Origin: Alphaproteobacteria bacterium
GTDB lineage: Bacteria > Pseudomonadota > Alphaproteobacteria > MPNO01
Length of the DNA stretch: 64,000 bases
Reading direction: 5' to 3'
Assembly: GCA_964291675.2 (NCBI GenBank)
Contig: OZ219865.1
Span: 1,056,001 to 1,120,000, forward strand
The first letter of the stretch is position 1, and every line of letters starts with the position of its first letter. Shown here piece after piece: positions 16,664 to 22,283 of this stretch. A model generated the notes under the pieces. It was not told where the DNA came from and searched no databases. It saw only the letters and a list, made by a program, of their open reading frames with translations. Both the position numbers and the translations under genes were made by a program.

Positions 16664-17905
16664 TCAACCCCCGCCGCTGCGCTCGCGCTCCAGCGCGTTG
16701 CGCGCCAGCACCCTGCCGCGCTTGATCACCCAGCGCGGCGGCTGTTGCAGGCGGAGCACGTGCTGCACCGTGGGCGCGGCGAGGATGTTGAAATCCGCCC
16801 TGGTGCCGACATCGAGACCGTAGCCTTCGAGCCTCATCGCCTTGGCGGCGTTGCCGGTGATGAAGTCGAACACCGCGCGGATCTCGTCGGGATAGGTCAT
16901 GTGGCAGGCGTGGCAGACATGGGCCGCCACCTCCTGCTGGTCGTTGCGCCCGAACGGGTAGTAGGGGTCGTTCACGTCGTCCTGCGAGGCGAACACGTTG
17001 GCGCCGATCTTCCACAGATCCTTGGTCCGGGTCACCCCGCGCCGCATGTTGTTGGTGTCGTAGCGCCCCTGCGCCACCAGGCTGATCTGCGGGTTGGACG
17101 AGATCGAGACGCCGGCGTCGCGCACCAGGTTCATCACCTTGTGGGCGTGCACCTCGTCGTAAGCCGCGAGCGCGCCGCAATGGCTCGCCGACACCCGTCC
17201 CTGGTAGCCCTCGCGGATCGTCCTGGCGGCGAGGTATTCGAGCGAGCGGCTGTTCGCGTTGTCGGTGTCATCCACCAGCATGTGGATGTCCTTGTCGTAT
17301 TTCCTGGCGAGCTCGAAGCAGAAATCGATATGGGCGCGCGCGTCCTCGTCGAGATGCTCGTGCCAGGGCAGGCCGCCGACCACGTCGGCGCCCATGCGCA
17401 TCCCCTCCTCCATCAGCTCGTCGGTGCCGGGGTCGCGGATGATCGCCTCCTGCGGGAAGTCGACCGCCTCGATCTCGACGATCCCGGCGTATTTCTCGCG
17501 AAGCGCGATGATCCCTTCGAGCGGGCGCAGCCCGCCGATCGAGTCGACGTCGGCGAAGACGCGGAACACCGTCGAGCCGTTGAGGATCCCCTCCTCGATC
17601 GCCCGGCTCGCGCGCTCGACGATGTCGTCCACCGTGTAGGTCCGCTTGTGCTCCCAGGTGATCTCCAGGCATTCCTGGAAGCTGTTGGTGAGGTTGGGGC
17701 GCATCACGTCGCCCAGATTGCACTTGTCGAGATGGACGTGGCCGTTGACATAGGTGGGCGCGGCGAGGTTGCCCGCGGCGTCGATCTCGCTCTCCGCGCT
17801 CGCCTCGATCCCGCGGTCGATGGCGGCGATCCTGCCGTCCTCCACGCCGATTTCCCACGCGCCGTCGCGGTCGAGAAGCCGCGCGTTGCGAACGATCAGG
17901 TCCAT
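16664..17905 (-). CDS. Cytosine deaminase-like amidohydrolase
   Basis: NGHVHLDK, FPQE, SHCGAL, QDDVNDPYYPFG. Confidence 0.9.
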   Translation of the reverse strand: MDLIVRNARLLDRDGAWEIGVEDGRIAAIDRGIEASAESEIDAAGNLAAPTYVNGHVHLDKCNLGDVMRPNLTNSFQECLEITWEHKRTYTVDDIVERASRAIEEGILNGSTVFRVFADVDSIGGLRPLEGIIALREKYAGIVEIEAVDFPQEAIIRDPGTDELMEEGMRMGADVVGGLPWHEHLDEDARAHIDFCFELARKYDKDIHMLVDDTDNANSRSLEYLAARTIREGYQGRVSASHCGALAAYDEVHAHKVMNLVRDAGVSISSNPQISLVAQGRYDTNNMRRGVTRTKDLWKIGANVFASQDDVNDPYYPFGRNDQQEVAAHVCHACHMTYPDEIRAVFDFITGNAAKAMRLEGYGLDVGTRADFNILAAPTVQHVLRLQQPPRWVIKRGRVLARNALERERSGGG

Positions 17906-17926: not shown

Positions 17927-18448
17927 TCAGCTCTGCTTTATCTTGCCTTCCTCGTCGAGCTCCAGCCCGGTCTCGCGGGCCGCCTCGATGACCTTGTCGT
18001 GCCATTGGACGCCCGGCGGGTTGCTGCCTTCGATGACCCCGATCAGCACGGCGTACTCGTCGCCCGCGTTCCTGAAGCCGCGCATCACCCCGGTCGGGAT
18101 CGAGATCACGTCGCCCTGCTCCAGGATCGCCTCGTTCTCGCCGTCGTCGCCCCAGTAGATCGACCAGCGCCCGGTCAGCGGGATGAACACCTCGATGGTC
18201 TCGTGGCTGTGCAGCGCGGATCCCTTGCCGGGCTCGCAGCCGTTATGAGTGACGGTGAAGCTGCGGGCATCGGCGATGGCGGGCCTGGTGTCGGGGTCCT
18301 CGTTAACGCCGTAGCCGATCATGTTGAATATGTCGCGCTCGTGGTCGGGAAGCCTGGTGTCCACGAAAGCCATCTTGTTCGGCTTCATGCCGGCGAAGCG
18401 CGCGATCCTCGTCTCCATCTCGGCCTTGGAAACATTGCGTGTCTTCAT
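17927..18448 (-). CDS. Cupin domain protein
   Basis: GSALHSHETIEVF, GDVISIPTGVMRGF. Confidence 0.85.
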   Translation of the reverse strand: MKTRNVSKAEMETRIARFAGMKPNKMAFVDTRLPDHERDIFNMIGYGVNEDPDTRPAIADARSFTVTHNGCEPGKGSALHSHETIEVFIPLTGRWSIYWGDDGENEAILEQGDVISIPTGVMRGFRNAGDEYAVLIGVIEGSNPPGVQWHDKVIEAARETGLELDEEGKIKQS

Positions 18449-18568
18449 CGTCCGTCCCCGGTCTCGATAAGGCTGTCGGCAGCGTAGCGCCGCGCCGCCG
18501 CAAGCCGCAAGCGGGCTCGGGGTCCGGAATGGCCGCCGTGAGCCGGGATCTGGAACGGTGGGCGGCCC

Positions 18569-19267
18569 CTACTCCGCCGCTTCGGTCCCCGCGTCGAGGA
18601 GTTGGGCGACGTAGAACCCGCGCCGGGTCAGGCTCTTGGCGAACTCGTCCTCGAAATGCGCGACCACCGAGCCGGTGACCAGCTCCTCGGCGAGCAGCGC
18701 ATCCGACCACGCCTTGACCAGCGGAAAGCCGTCCAGGAACCCGGTCGCGAGGTAGCGCTCGGCGAACGCGAAGCGCTGGAAGAACGGCGCATAGGCCGCA
18801 TCGACCAGGCACAGCGTCTCGCCGTTGAAGAACGGGCCGTCATTGCCGCGCTCGCGCTCGATCGCCTCTTCGAGCCGGGCCACCCGCCTGGGCGCCTGGG
18901 CCAGCCCTTCCGCCATCGCTTCCGGGGTCTTGGTGTAGTAGATGCCCATCAGCGCCTTGGCGAAGTCGGGCACGAAGTCGGTCCACGCGCGGTTGCGGGC
19001 GCGCTCGACCGGGTCCTCGGGGTGCAGCCGGGGCGGCACCATCTCGTCGAGGAACTCGGCGATGGCGTTGGATTCGTAGAGCGGCTCGTCGCCGACCACC
19101 AGCACCGGAACCTTGCCGTGCGGCGAGATCTTCAGGAACCAGTCGGGCTTCTCGAGCAGGTTGATGTAGGTTACGTCGAACTCGACTCGCTTGGCGCGCA
19201 TCAGGATCACGGCGCGCTGCACCCAGGGTCAGGTGAACGAGCTGATCAGGTGATATTTTTCGGTCAT
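18569..19267 (-). CDS. Glutathione S-transferase (omega-like), probable selenoprotein with Sec13
   Basis: MTEKYHLISSFT-TGA-PWVQRAVI in frame with KPDWFLKISPHGKVPVL, YESNAIAEFLDE, CLVDAAYAP; GGAGA RBS before ATG 19267. Confidence 0.8.
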
Positions 19268-19352
19268 TCGCTGTCTCCGTCGCGGACCGTCGGCGGCCCG
19301 GTGCCGAACATAGGGCGCGCTTCCGTCCCGGTCAAAACGACGGGATGAGCGG

Positions 19353-19946
19353 ATGCCCGACTTCGCGCTCGAAGAGGCCTCCGGCGGGCCGGTCGCCGGC
19401 ATCGACGAGGCCGGGCGGGGGCCGTGGGCCGGGCCGGTGGTCGCGGCGGCGGTGATCCTCGATCCCCTGGCGCTGCCCGCCGGGCTCGACGACTCGAAGA
19501 CGCTCACGGCGGCGCGGCGCGGCGACCTCTATCGCCGGCTCCTGGGTTGCGCCGAGATCGGCGTCGGCGCCGCCAGCGTGCGCGAGATCGAGCAGCTCAA
19601 CATCTTGCAGGCCACCCTGGCCGCGATGGCCCGGGCGCTCGCCGCCCTGCCCCGGCGCCCCGCCACCGCCCTGGTCGACGGCAACCGCGCCCCCGACCTG
19701 CCCTGCCGGGTGGAGACGGTGGTGCGCGGCGATTCGCGCTCGCTCTCCATCGCCGCCGCCTCGATCGTCGCCAAGGTGACGCGCGACGGCATCATGGCGC
19801 GGCTCGCTTCGCGCTATCCCGGCTTCGGCTGGGAGCGCAACGCGGGCTACGGCACGGCGGAGCACAGGCGGGCGCTCGCCCGGCTCGGCGCGACCCCGCA
19901 TCATCGGCGGTGCTTCGCGCCGATCCGCGCGATCCTCGAGAGCTAG
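19353..19946 (+). CDS. rnhB: Ribonuclease HII
   Basis: [35 protein letters not shown]. Confidence 0.97.
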
Positions 19947-20989
19947 CCCGAATGCGCCAGCGCGTGGCGCACGACCTTCTTCATCACCGACGGCAGCGCG
20001 TGTTCGCCGAGCCGCGCCACCGGCGTCCAGACCCCTTCCACCGGTCGCCACTCCTTGACGACGCCGGAGACGATCTCCAGCTCCAGGTGGAAATGGGTGA
20101 AGGTATGGCGCACCCCTCCCGGTACGGGCCGCCAGTCGGCGCGCGCGGGCGCGTGGGCGAGCGCCCGCGGACCCGCCCGCGTGTCCCGCCAATCGGTCGA
20201 GGGGATTTCCATCATCCCGCCCAAGAGCCCGCTCTCGGGGCGCCGGCGGAGCAACACCGCCCCGTCGGGCCGCCTCGCCCAGAAGGCGGTGCCGTAGCGC
20301 GTCGGCCGCTGCGCCCGGGTCTCGCGCCGGGGCAGGTTTTCGGCGGTCCCGGCGCGGAACGCCGCGCAGTCCTGCGGCAACGGGCAGATTCCGCAGCGGG
20401 GCGACCGCGGCGTGCAGACCGTCGCGCCGAGATCCATCATCGCCTGGACGTGGTCGCCCGGCCGGGCATGCGGCGTGAGACCGGCGGCGAGGCGGCGCAG
20501 CGCGGGCTTGGCGCGCGGCAGGGGCTCCTCGACCGCGAACAGGCGCGCCACCACCCGCTCGACATTGCCGTCGACCGCGGTGGCCGGGCGGTCGAAGGCG
20601 ATCGCGGCGATCGCCGCCGCGGTGTAGGCGCCGATCCCGGGGAGCGCCCGCAGGGCCTCCTCGCTGTCCGGGAAGCGGCCGCCATGCTCGCGGACCAGCA
20701 GCCTCGCGCATCTGTGCAGGTTGCGCGCGCGGGCGTAGTAGCCGAGCCCCTGCCAGGCATGCAGCACCTCGTCGAGCTCCGCCTGGGCGAGCGCTTCGAG
20801 GGTCGGCCAGCGGGCGAGGAAACGCCCGAAATACCCCGCCACCGTTGCGACCGTCGTCTGCTGCAACATGATTTCGCTGAGCCAGACCCGGTAGGGATCG
20901 GGACGGCGGCCGGGCGGCGCGCGCCACGGCAGGTCGCGGCGGTGCCGGTCGTACCACGCCAGCAGCTTCCCGGCTGCGCTTCGGTCCAC
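19943..20989 (-). CDS. mutY: A/G-specific adenine glycosylase
   Basis: [41 protein letters not shown], 4Fe-4S Cys motif; start approximate. Confidence 0.96.
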
Positions 20990-21076
20990 GCGACGAGTTC
21001 CCACGGGCGTCGGTTCGTTGTCTCGCCCGTCCGCCCAGCCTACCATGCCTCGGCGGAAGCCTGCGGCGGAGCGGCC

Positions 21077-21517
21077 ATGGCAGCGCGCTTGAGCAAGCTG
21101 ATCCCCGGGATCGTCGGCGAAGCGTTTCGGCGGCGGGGCTTCGTGGAGCCCGTGCTGGCGACCAGCTGGCGGGACATCGTGGGCGAGGAGACGGCGCGGC
21201 GCGCGATCCCGATCCGGATCGACTTTCCGCGCGGGTCGAGAAGCGGCGGGACGCTGCACATCCGCGTCGAAGGCGCGCATGCGCCCGACCTCCAGCACAA
21301 CGCGCCGCGAATCGTCGAACGGATCAACAGCTTCCACGGCTATGCCGCGGTCGCCCGGATCGCGCTGCACCAGGGACCGGTGGAGACGCGCGAGCCGTCG
21401 CCCACACCCCGCGAGCCCGCCGGGAGGAAGGCGCCGGAGATCGGCGGCGTGAACGACCCGCGGTTGCGGGAAGCGCTGCGCGGGCTGGGAACGACGATCC
21501 GGGACGGTTCGGAATAG
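21077..21517 (+). CDS. DciA/DUF721 family protein
   Basis: RRGFVE, WRDIVG, LHIRV, LQH, IVERINSFHGY; conserved mutY-DUF721-dsbA-smc order. Confidence 0.88.
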   Translation: MAARLSKLIPGIVGEAFRRRGFVEPVLATSWRDIVGEETARRAIPIRIDFPRGSRSGGTLHIRVEGAHAPDLQHNAPRIVERINSFHGYAAVARIALHQGPVETREPSPTPREPAGRKAPEIGGVNDPRLREALRGLGTTIRDGSE

Positions 21518-21602
21518 CCCCGCCCGGCAGAAACCCCGTTCGGCGCCGACGCAACATGAAGCTGGACGCCGATAGCGGAATCCATCTAAATATTGTGGTA
21601 GG

Positions 21603-22283
21603 ATGACCGAAATGTGGAACATGTGGCATATGAGCCGCCGAACGCTGGTTGGCGGCATCGTGTCCCTCGGGTGCTTTCTGGCCGTCTCCGGCGTCTTCTG
21701 GAGCACCGCGCCGAAGGCTCAGGTCCCGAAGCCGGAAGAGACTTTCGGCTCGGTGGCGATCGACGCCGGGGACAAGGTGCTGGGCCGCGCCGATGCGCCG
21801 GTGACCATCGTCGAGTACGCCTCCTTCACCTGCCCGCATTGCGCACATTTCCACGCCGACATCCTGCCGGAGCTCAAGAAGGCCTATATCGATACCGGCA
21901 AGGCCCGGCTGGTCTATCGCGATTTCCCGCTCGACCGCTACGCGTTCGCCGCCTCGGTGGTGGCGCGCTGCGCCGCGAACGACCGCTATTTCGGCATGGT
22001 CGACCTGCTGTACCGGGAACAGCCGCGCTGGTCGGGCGCGGAGAACCCGGTCGCCGCGCTCGGCGGCCTCGCCATGCTGGCCGGCATTTCGAAGAAGAAG
22101 CTGGAATCCTGCCTCCGCGACGAAGGGCTTCAGAAGACCGTGCTCCAGCAGCGCCTCACGGCGAGCCAGCAATACAAGGTGACGTCGACGCCGACCCTGA
22201 TCGTCAACGGCGCGAATTATGGCGGCGATCTGACGCTCGACCAGCTCCGCGCCGTGATCGACGCGATCCTGTCGGGGTCGTAG
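21603..22283 (+). CDS. DsbA family thiol-disulfide oxidoreductase
   Basis: EYASFTCPHCAHF, YRDFPLD, STPTL; N-terminal signal/anchor; start may be ATG 21630. Confidence 0.93.
   Translation: MTEMWNMWHMSRRTLVGGIVSLGCFLAVSGVFWSTAPKAQVPKPEETFGSVAIDAGDKVLGRADAPVTIVEYASFTCPHCAHFHADILPELKKAYIDTGKARLVYRDFPLDRYAFAASVVARCAANDRYFGMVDLLYREQPRWSGAENPVAALGGLAMLAGISKKKLESCLRDEGLQKTVLQQRLTASQQYKVTSTPTLIVNGANYGGDLTLDQLRAVIDAILSGS

Follow-up and report, generated by a model that had tools for sequence, protein, structure and literature searches.

The gene described here lies on the minus strand of a 64,000-nucleotide (nt) stretch of an alphaproteobacterial genome (assembly GCA_964291675.2, contig OZ219865.1, positions 1,056,001 to 1,120,000), referred to below as the window; positions are counted from its first letter. 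It encodes a glutathione S-transferase (GST) in which an in-frame TGA very probably specifies selenocysteine (Sec). The complete coding sequence (18569–19267) comprises 232 codons when the TGA is counted as Sec and ends with the stop codon TAG at 18571–18569, as established by read-through translation, Pfam matches and alignment with cysteine (Cys) homologs. On the same strand, a GGAGA ribosome-binding site (19274–19278) is separated by a 6-nt spacer from the ATG start codon (19265–19267), which stands 12 codons ahead of the TGA. The twelve codons from ATG 19267 (MTEKYHLISSFT) are followed by the TGA at 19231–19229 and then by PWVQRAVI. This is the only in-frame TGA; it occupies codon 13, within the motif T-U-P-W-V-Q-R, and the remaining frame is intact. 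Codons 2–12 (TEKYHLISSFT, 19232–19264, minus strand) correspond to strand beta-1 of the thioredoxin-like domain and are dropped by gene callers, whereas residue 13 (19229–19231), read as Sec, replaces the catalytic Cys of omega-type GSTs, as judged from the pairing of TGA with Cys codons in relatives. A preliminary description of this DNA, made from the sequence alone, had reported the ribosome-binding site, the start codon, the TGA and the GST frame downstream of it, and every sequence detail it gave for them is present in the window.

Standard gene calling recovers only part of this gene. The sole open reading frame (ORF) given for the locus in the translation-table-11 list for the window is a 217-amino-acid frame from GTG 19222 (18569–19222, minus strand), which is the GST minus its catalytic residue. 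The read-through protein matches the Pfam domains GST_N_2 (PF13409, the best match, 9e-18), GST_N_3 (2e-15) and GST_C_2 (3e-9), and aligns over its full length with Cys homologs of 231–232 amino acids; no NCBIfam equivalog matched it above its cut-off. Among the best 120 public protein matches, 37 contain C-P-W-V-Q-R and are mostly 224–233 amino acids long, with one of 255. The other 83 are 208–217 amino acids long and start just downstream of the Sec site (MQRAVI, MILLRA, MRAK and others). Short records of this form are what gene callers yield on stopping at the TGA, and the truncation that had been suspected from the window alone is thus visible across the public matches.

The start of the reading frame was examined in 116 distinct 60-nt segments that precede the TGA in TGA forms. 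From codon −9 to codon −1, the first two codon positions mostly had an entropy of 0.6 bits or less (codon −2 being the exception), and the third position had 0.8–1.8 bits. Codon −12 was ATG in 92 of the 116 segments, and column entropy dropped from ~1.9 bits upstream to 0.6–0.9 bits at this codon. Beyond the ATG, all three positions stood at ~1.9 bits and in-frame stops occurred in 17/116 segments. As the coding pattern ends at the ATG, the reading frame begins there and runs through the TGA. Codons −16 and −15 were enriched for G/R/E and purine-rich, which fits a ribosome-binding site. Coding conservation thus flanks the TGA in a single frame, as the third-position pattern upstream and as intact GST domains downstream.

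The codon aligned with the TGA was collected from relatives in two scans. Species-representative genomes queried with the read-through protein gave 80 loci at 64–95% identity. Their titles included Defluviicoccus sp., Alphaproteobacteria, Rhodospirillaceae, Gammaproteobacteria and others, and the nearest were titled Defluviicoccus sp. or Alphaproteobacteria bacterium. The aligned codon was TGA in 78 of these loci and TGC in 2 (L043 and L050); an extra TGC motif match, at position 810 of L042, was dropped as an unrelated chance match. Metagenomes scanned with a Cys-form homolog (P0043) as the query gave 80 further loci, 79 of which span the site (L152 is without the N-terminus), and here the codon was TGA in 56, TGC in 19 and TGT in 4. 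When the scans were pooled, TGA was found in 134/159 loci and TGC or TGT at the same codon in 25/159, with no third codon type; because one scan was seeded with a Sec form and the other with a Cys form, 134/159 should not be taken as an unbiased frequency. This is the Cys/TGA pairing that the preliminary description had proposed to look for in an alignment of homologs. Most of the relatives sampled are in the Sec state. TGA-bearing loci came from independent assemblies and reached down to ~61% identity, and full-length Cys homologs with 63–72% identity read T-C-P-W-V-Q-R. No Cys paralog of the Sec GST was found in the window's genome, where the next-best match was 37% identical over residues 26–101.

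A FastTree tree was calculated from 157 complete sequences (3 incomplete rows of 160 were dropped) with the Sec/Cys column masked as X. On this tree, a single change can suffice to explain the Sec/Cys label; shuffled labels averaged 22.6 changes, and none of 500 shuffles was as low. The Cys forms comprised one starred clade of 21 and another of 3, and the single branch separating the two states was weakly supported (69). With as few as one change between Sec and Cys, the TGA is an inherited feature and not recurrent damage. The tree is unrooted and does not distinguish gain of Sec from its loss.

The genome that contains the window consists of two contigs, C1, which carries the window, and C2; it is rated 93.7% complete and 6.67% contaminated. 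All four components of the Sec machinery that the preliminary description had suggested searching for (selA, selB, selC and selD) are present in it. With NCBIfam profiles, selB scored 456 bits (cut-off 242), selA 566 bits (cut-off 268) and selD 314 bits (cut-off 125), and ARAGORN detected one tRNA-SeC(tca) at C2 2837312–2837407, adjoining selB and selA. The selA, selB and tRNA-SeC genes are arranged head to tail on the minus strand in one cluster (C2:2837312-2841709), and selD lies apart from it (C2:1869115-1870017). A point against assigning this machinery to the GST is that selA, selB, selC and selD are all on C2, not on the window's contig, in an assembly that is 6.67% contaminated. To guard against a binning artefact, selB was searched for in five relatives with a TGA form, and in 5/5 a match exceeding the cut-off lay on contig C1, which also carries the GST locus. 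By contrast, selB matches were found in 0/2 TGC-form genomes, which may be incomplete.

The window's genome also carries other genes interrupted by a TGA at a redox motif. A search with the profile TIGR01926 returned six weak matches outside the window, each with one TGA within a CxxU motif (QCVYU twice, QCPFU, MCFYU, RCRYU and ECFYU). These AhpD-like (CMD-like) genes lie at C2:581551-581907, C2:1280026-1280487 and C2:952277-952648 on the plus strand, at C2:1413471-1413971 and C2:2502402-2502749 on the minus strand, and at C1:739396-739869 on the plus strand, the last on the window's contig. CxxU is the motif listed for AhpD-like selenoproteins in the accessible text of two reviews, from 2022 and 2026. 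Judging from their sequences, the six genes are probably further selenoproteins of this known family. With six CxxU genes of this kind, the organism's Sec system would serve several genes, including one on the contig of the window. In five of the six, a CUCCGUG(C/A)GAG hairpin follows a few codons past the TGA; CCGUG is common to these five and to the hairpin of the GST gene described below, and is 7 nt farther from the UGA in the AhpD-like genes. Formate dehydrogenase was considered as a second selenoprotein and rejected, as the formate dehydrogenase-like matches were without an in-frame stop.

The RNA downstream of the TGA can form a hairpin like a selenocysteine insertion sequence (SECIS) at 19194–19217 (minus strand), starting 11 nt past the TGA. 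Its arms are GCGCGC (19217–19212) and GCGCGC (19199–19194), and they enclose a central 12 nt, CGUGAUCCUGAU (19211–19200). Inside the hairpin lies the nearly invariant CGUGAU (19206–19211, minus strand), whose G-U (19210–19209) is a candidate SelB contact. The minimum-energy fold of 19240–19170 consists of an 11-nt spacer, GCGCGC, a bulged C, GU, a 7-nt loop GAUCCUG, AU and GCGCGC. This is the structure drawn in the preliminary description, and it holds for the window RNA, but the bulged C and the loop-initial G vary across the family.

Relatives were compared for constraint on this RNA. In 79 TGA forms (the window and 78 genome loci), positions 21–26 from the first base of the TGA were C in 75, G in 78, U in 79, G in 75, A in 79 and U in 79. 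Counted from the T of the TGA, the third codon positions at columns 15, 18, 21, 24 and 33 were nearly invariant in these forms, and the third position at column 12 was free (G 17, A 18, C 29 and T 15). Silent sites in 93 TGA forms and 19 Cys forms, each taken as a distinct 48-nt sequence, were compared by Fisher tests. Arg was CGC in 92/93 TGA forms vs 8/19 Cys forms (p 1.6e-9), Ala was GCC in 88/93 vs 4/10 of the Cys forms with Ala (p 5.7e-5), and Val was GTG in 84/93 vs 6/18 (p 8e-7), whereas the controls gave 35/93 vs 2/19 for Val as GTC at columns 10–12 (p 0.03) and 64/93 vs 9/19 for Pro as CCC (p 0.11); these tests count related sequences as independent, which tells against their p-values as overstated, and the contrast is still plain. 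The Val codon just ahead of the stem was GTC in 35, GTG in 22, GTA in 22 and GTT in 14 of the 93 TGA forms. Ser stood at the Ala position in 9/19 Cys forms and in 0/93 TGA forms. RNA-level constraint after codon 13 is specific to TGA forms: their silent sites are frozen, and those of the Cys forms are not.

Several results on the secondary structure itself count against the Sec reading. The fold of the window RNA had an energy of −21.7 kcal/mol against a shuffle mean of −21.95 kcal/mol (z 0.09), and 103/200 dinucleotide shuffles were at least as stable. Since its single-sequence fold is at the shuffle level in GC-rich DNA, the hairpin alone proves nothing; the evidence for its importance comes from relatives, not from the single sequence. 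The 8-pair structure of the preliminary description was paired in 91.7% of cells when 65 distinct TGA-form sequences were compared, yet these held one compensatory change (A15-U38) and practically no covariation, and the inner U23-A31 pair was formed in just 29/65. Two registers fit the alignment, 15-20/33-38 and 15-19/32-36; they are inseparable because the arms are a GC repeat. The 5-pair register, shifted by two columns, formed pairs in 99.4% of cells and was the one chosen by RNAalifold. Mean hairpin energy was −9.07 kcal/mol (sd 4.10) in Cys forms and −10.21 kcal/mol (sd 1.48) in TGA forms (Mann-Whitney p 0.13), the Cys-form energies being much more widely spread. G22 and U23 were both unpaired in the minimum-energy fold of only 10/93 TGA forms, and folding alone therefore does not support placing the G-U in the loop. 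An Rfam scan of 18000–20200 gave no match at E values up to 1.

One divergent TGA form, from a metagenome locus (L164:301-348), encodes the same peptide with other codons (CAA AGG GCC ... GCC CTC). Its arms, AGGGC and GCCCU, flank the same CGUGAUU centre, and by eye it is the lone clear stem replacement among the 93 distinct TGA forms. This replacement fits a structure being kept. On our reading, a GC stem that begins 11 nt past the UGA may serve to present the invariant CGUGAU. The SECIS element of Escherichia coli fdhF, with its spacing and its G23/U24 contacts, is the model for this reading and not a test of it. Both hairpins lie within the coding sequence 11 nt after the UGA and have a conserved G-U ~20 nt after it; they differ in that the present element has a 12-nt centre with variable inner pairing, and not a tetraloop with a bulged U.

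The encoded protein has the two-domain GST fold, as indicated by the Pfam N- and C-terminal domains, an AlphaFold model and Foldseek. Its nearest solved structures by sequence were Leishmania thiol-dependent reductase 1 (TDR1, 1e-23), pyrimidodiazepine synthase (1e-21) and human GSTO1 (8e-21); tau GSTs, SspA, DHAR and lambda GSTs ranked below these. In PDB entries 4ags and 10ha, it is the Cys of the CPF/CPY motif that aligns with residue 13. The AlphaFold model, calculated with an 18-sequence alignment, had a mean predicted local distance difference test score (pLDDT) of 80.8 and a predicted template-modelling score (pTM) of 0.82. It contains a strand at residues 5–10 and a helix at residues 14–25, and in this model Sec would sit at the start of helix alpha-1. 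K-V-P-V-L and E-S-N were invariant in the homolog alignment; we take them to be the cis-Pro and Glu-Ser glutathione-binding elements of GSTs.

Foldseek placed human GSTO1 first (template-modelling score, TM, 0.77 for the top match and 0.76–0.79 across the GSTO1 matches), with tau-class GSTs equal within error. Tau-class GSTs use Ser. As this class is equal by fold, the class assignment rests on the motif. The protein shares with omega-class and other Cys-type GSTs (GSTO1/GSTO2, TDR1, pyrimidodiazepine synthase, DHAR and lambda) the two-domain fold (Foldseek TM 0.75–0.79 to GSTO1/GSTO2) and the placement of the catalytic residue, which lies in a C-P-aromatic motif where helix alpha-1 begins. 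It differs from them in having Sec in place of Cys, and sequence identity is 23–29%. Mammalian omega GSTs have an N-terminal extension ahead of strand beta-1, and in the GSTO1 alignments the matching region begins at chain residue 26–31. This extension is absent here, with the strand beginning at residue 5 and Sec at position 13, and we therefore call the protein omega-like and not omega class proper.

From these features and by analogy with known systems, we infer the following mechanism. Translation would start at ATG 19267, and the hairpin 11 nt downstream of the UGA, within the coding sequence, may recruit SelB carrying Sec-tRNA(Sec) to UGA 19231–19229. Sec would then enter the chain at residue 13, where helix alpha-1 of the thioredoxin-like domain begins. 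If the enzyme works as omega, lambda and DHAR-type GSTs do, its selenolate may attack a glutathionylated or oxidised substrate and form a Se-S bond with glutathione, and a second glutathione would regenerate the enzyme. There is no resolving Cys beside the Sec.

Three other explanations of the TGA were weighed. If it were a true stop, the product would be the 217-amino-acid protein from GTG 19222 (ATG 19202 in relatives), without a catalytic residue, and the 12-codon upstream ORF would be a leader or noise. Standard ORF calling does yield this product, 83/120 of the nearest public records have the truncated form, and the hairpin is no better than shuffles. However, such a protein would be without strand beta-1 and the catalytic position of its fold, and the downstream starts vary among relatives (MQRAVI, MILLRA and MRAK), as would be expected from arbitrary choices by gene callers. 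The 12 upstream codons are protein-conserved and in frame in 116 distinct sequences and match Cys homologs residue by residue, and across 159 loci the TGA alternates solely with TGC/TGT, with no other codon or stop. Termination at this codon is thus highly unlikely. Decoding of the UGA by something other than Sec, either as Trp or Cys through a near-cognate tRNA or as minor regulatory read-through, with the downstream RNA serving another purpose, would be compatible with a hairpin unproven by covariation. Against it, the position corresponds to the fold's catalytic Cys, and the TGA there alternates solely with Cys codons, the genome has a complete Sec machinery, selB occurs in 5/5 TGA-form vs 0/2 Cys-form genomes, and six further TGA genes at CxxU redox motifs are found in the same genome. 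We consider non-Sec decoding extremely improbable.

A pseudogene or sequencing error, in which a Cys codon had mutated to or been misread as TGA in this genome, would require a single base change from TGC or TGT, in a metagenome-type assembly that is 93.7% complete. It is opposed by the occurrence of the same TGA in 134/159 loci from independent assemblies with identities down to ~61%, by a Sec/Cys label with as few as one change on the 157-sequence tree, and by the intact rest of the frame. Contigs from four public runs cover 19213–19243, and none of the 40 differences listed (of 105) falls at 19229–19231, which weakly backs the TGA; the runs were compared as contigs, a comparison that cannot show transcription or rare variants. 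One RNA-library contig spans 19121–19299 with 13 differences, none of them listed at the TGA; such libraries can contain DNA. A pseudogene or an error at this site is extremely unlikely. We conclude that the gene very probably encodes a bacterial selenoprotein, predicted from its sequence to be an omega-like, Cys-type GST with Sec in place of the catalytic Cys. The UPWV active site proposed in the preliminary description is supported by the Sec machinery, the shared TGA and the Cys pairing, and none of the outcomes that it had named as refuting was observed.

Runs labelled sponge metagenome contained parts of the window, with shares of 0.23–0.38; the contig comparison covered one of these runs, and we make no claim about habitat from this. 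Around the GST gene, rnhB (RNase HII, 2e-43; 19353–19946, plus strand) is divergent from it across an 85-bp spacer. A cupin gene (17927–18448) and an amidohydrolase gene (16664–17905) lie downstream on the same (minus) strand as the GST. The operon context was set aside as a clue to function: the neighbours are conserved in just the 7–9 closest loci and are uninformative for the family. Farther out, mutY (19943–21706, minus strand) is convergent with rnhB, the two ends overlapping by 4 bases. The mutY domains begin at residue 277 of the listed ORF, which places the true start well downstream of the first start codon of that ORF. A DciA domain (helicase-loader family) was found at ~21089–21364 on the plus strand, as residues 556–647 of a long ORF lying opposite mutY and overlapping it; probably only the final portion of this long ORF is a real gene.

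Selenoproteins of this kind have been listed before. The available text of the 2005 Sargasso Sea selenoproteome report (Zhang, Fomenko and Gladyshev, PMC1088965) counts Glutathione S-transferase as one of its new selenoprotein families and assigns it 4 sequences (COG0625). In its supplementary file 1, AACY01041448 and AACY01726075 read ...HLIS(F/S)VTuPWVQRAVIVLR..., with the TGA at nt 37–39. As compared by eye with the printed entries, these two share with the window gene the motif T-U-P-W-V-Q-R-A-V-I and a TGA at codon 13, and the nucleotides past the TGA are near-identical, CC(A/T)TGGGTCCAGCG(T/C)GCCGTGAT.... By sequence similarity, the gene is thus a member of the GST-like selenoprotein family that the 2005 Sargasso Sea report introduced. 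Nothing essential differs between that family and the window gene; the 2005 entries are short environmental fragments, whereas the window copy lies in an assembled alphaproteobacterial genome with Sec machinery alongside. The entries printed as GST in 2005 are of two sequence types, and two of them, which read RR-u-P-[YW]-A-I-R-A, seemingly belong to a different GST-related group (PMC1088965). The Global Ocean Sampling paper (Zhang and Gladyshev 2008, PMC2398784) gives 12 Sec GST sequences in the text available, and a GST-like selenoprotein also appears, under COG0625 / PF13409, in the accessible portions of the reviews from 2022 and 2026, the later of which describes the functions of such selenoproteins as largely uncharacterised. 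Among the literature matches listed from 2009 onward, none was a bench study of a natural Sec GST. The gene had been put forward as a hidden selenoprotein; it is hidden in the sense of being unannotated, but it is not undiscovered, as Sec GSTs with exactly the same motif were printed in 2005. What is new here is the evidence for Sec as the majority state and the annotation gap; the kind of gene itself was already known.

Most public records for this GST group are mis-annotated in a way that hides their chemistry, as 83/120 of the nearest are without the catalytic residue and the first strand. Re-annotation would matter for surveys of selenium use in bacteria that are marine or host-associated. 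The family's listing goes back two decades, and this genome provides a full-length gene together with its own selA, selB, selC and selD and six other candidate selenoproteins. The genome is for this reason a practical starting point for expression and assay, although the gene itself will be unsurprising to a specialist. The presence of Sec in 134/159 loci, in genomes labelled Alpha- and Gammaproteobacteria and with as few as one switch, raises a speculative idea to which we give rather low credence: selenium may be the rule and not an occasional substitute in this orthologous group, with a thiol being a poor replacement in its reaction, unlike in the usual omega-GST thiol transferase, and CCGUG may be a lineage-specific SelB signal. 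If this were true, the shared CCGUG could be a search signal for other selenoproteins still unannotated in these marine genomes.

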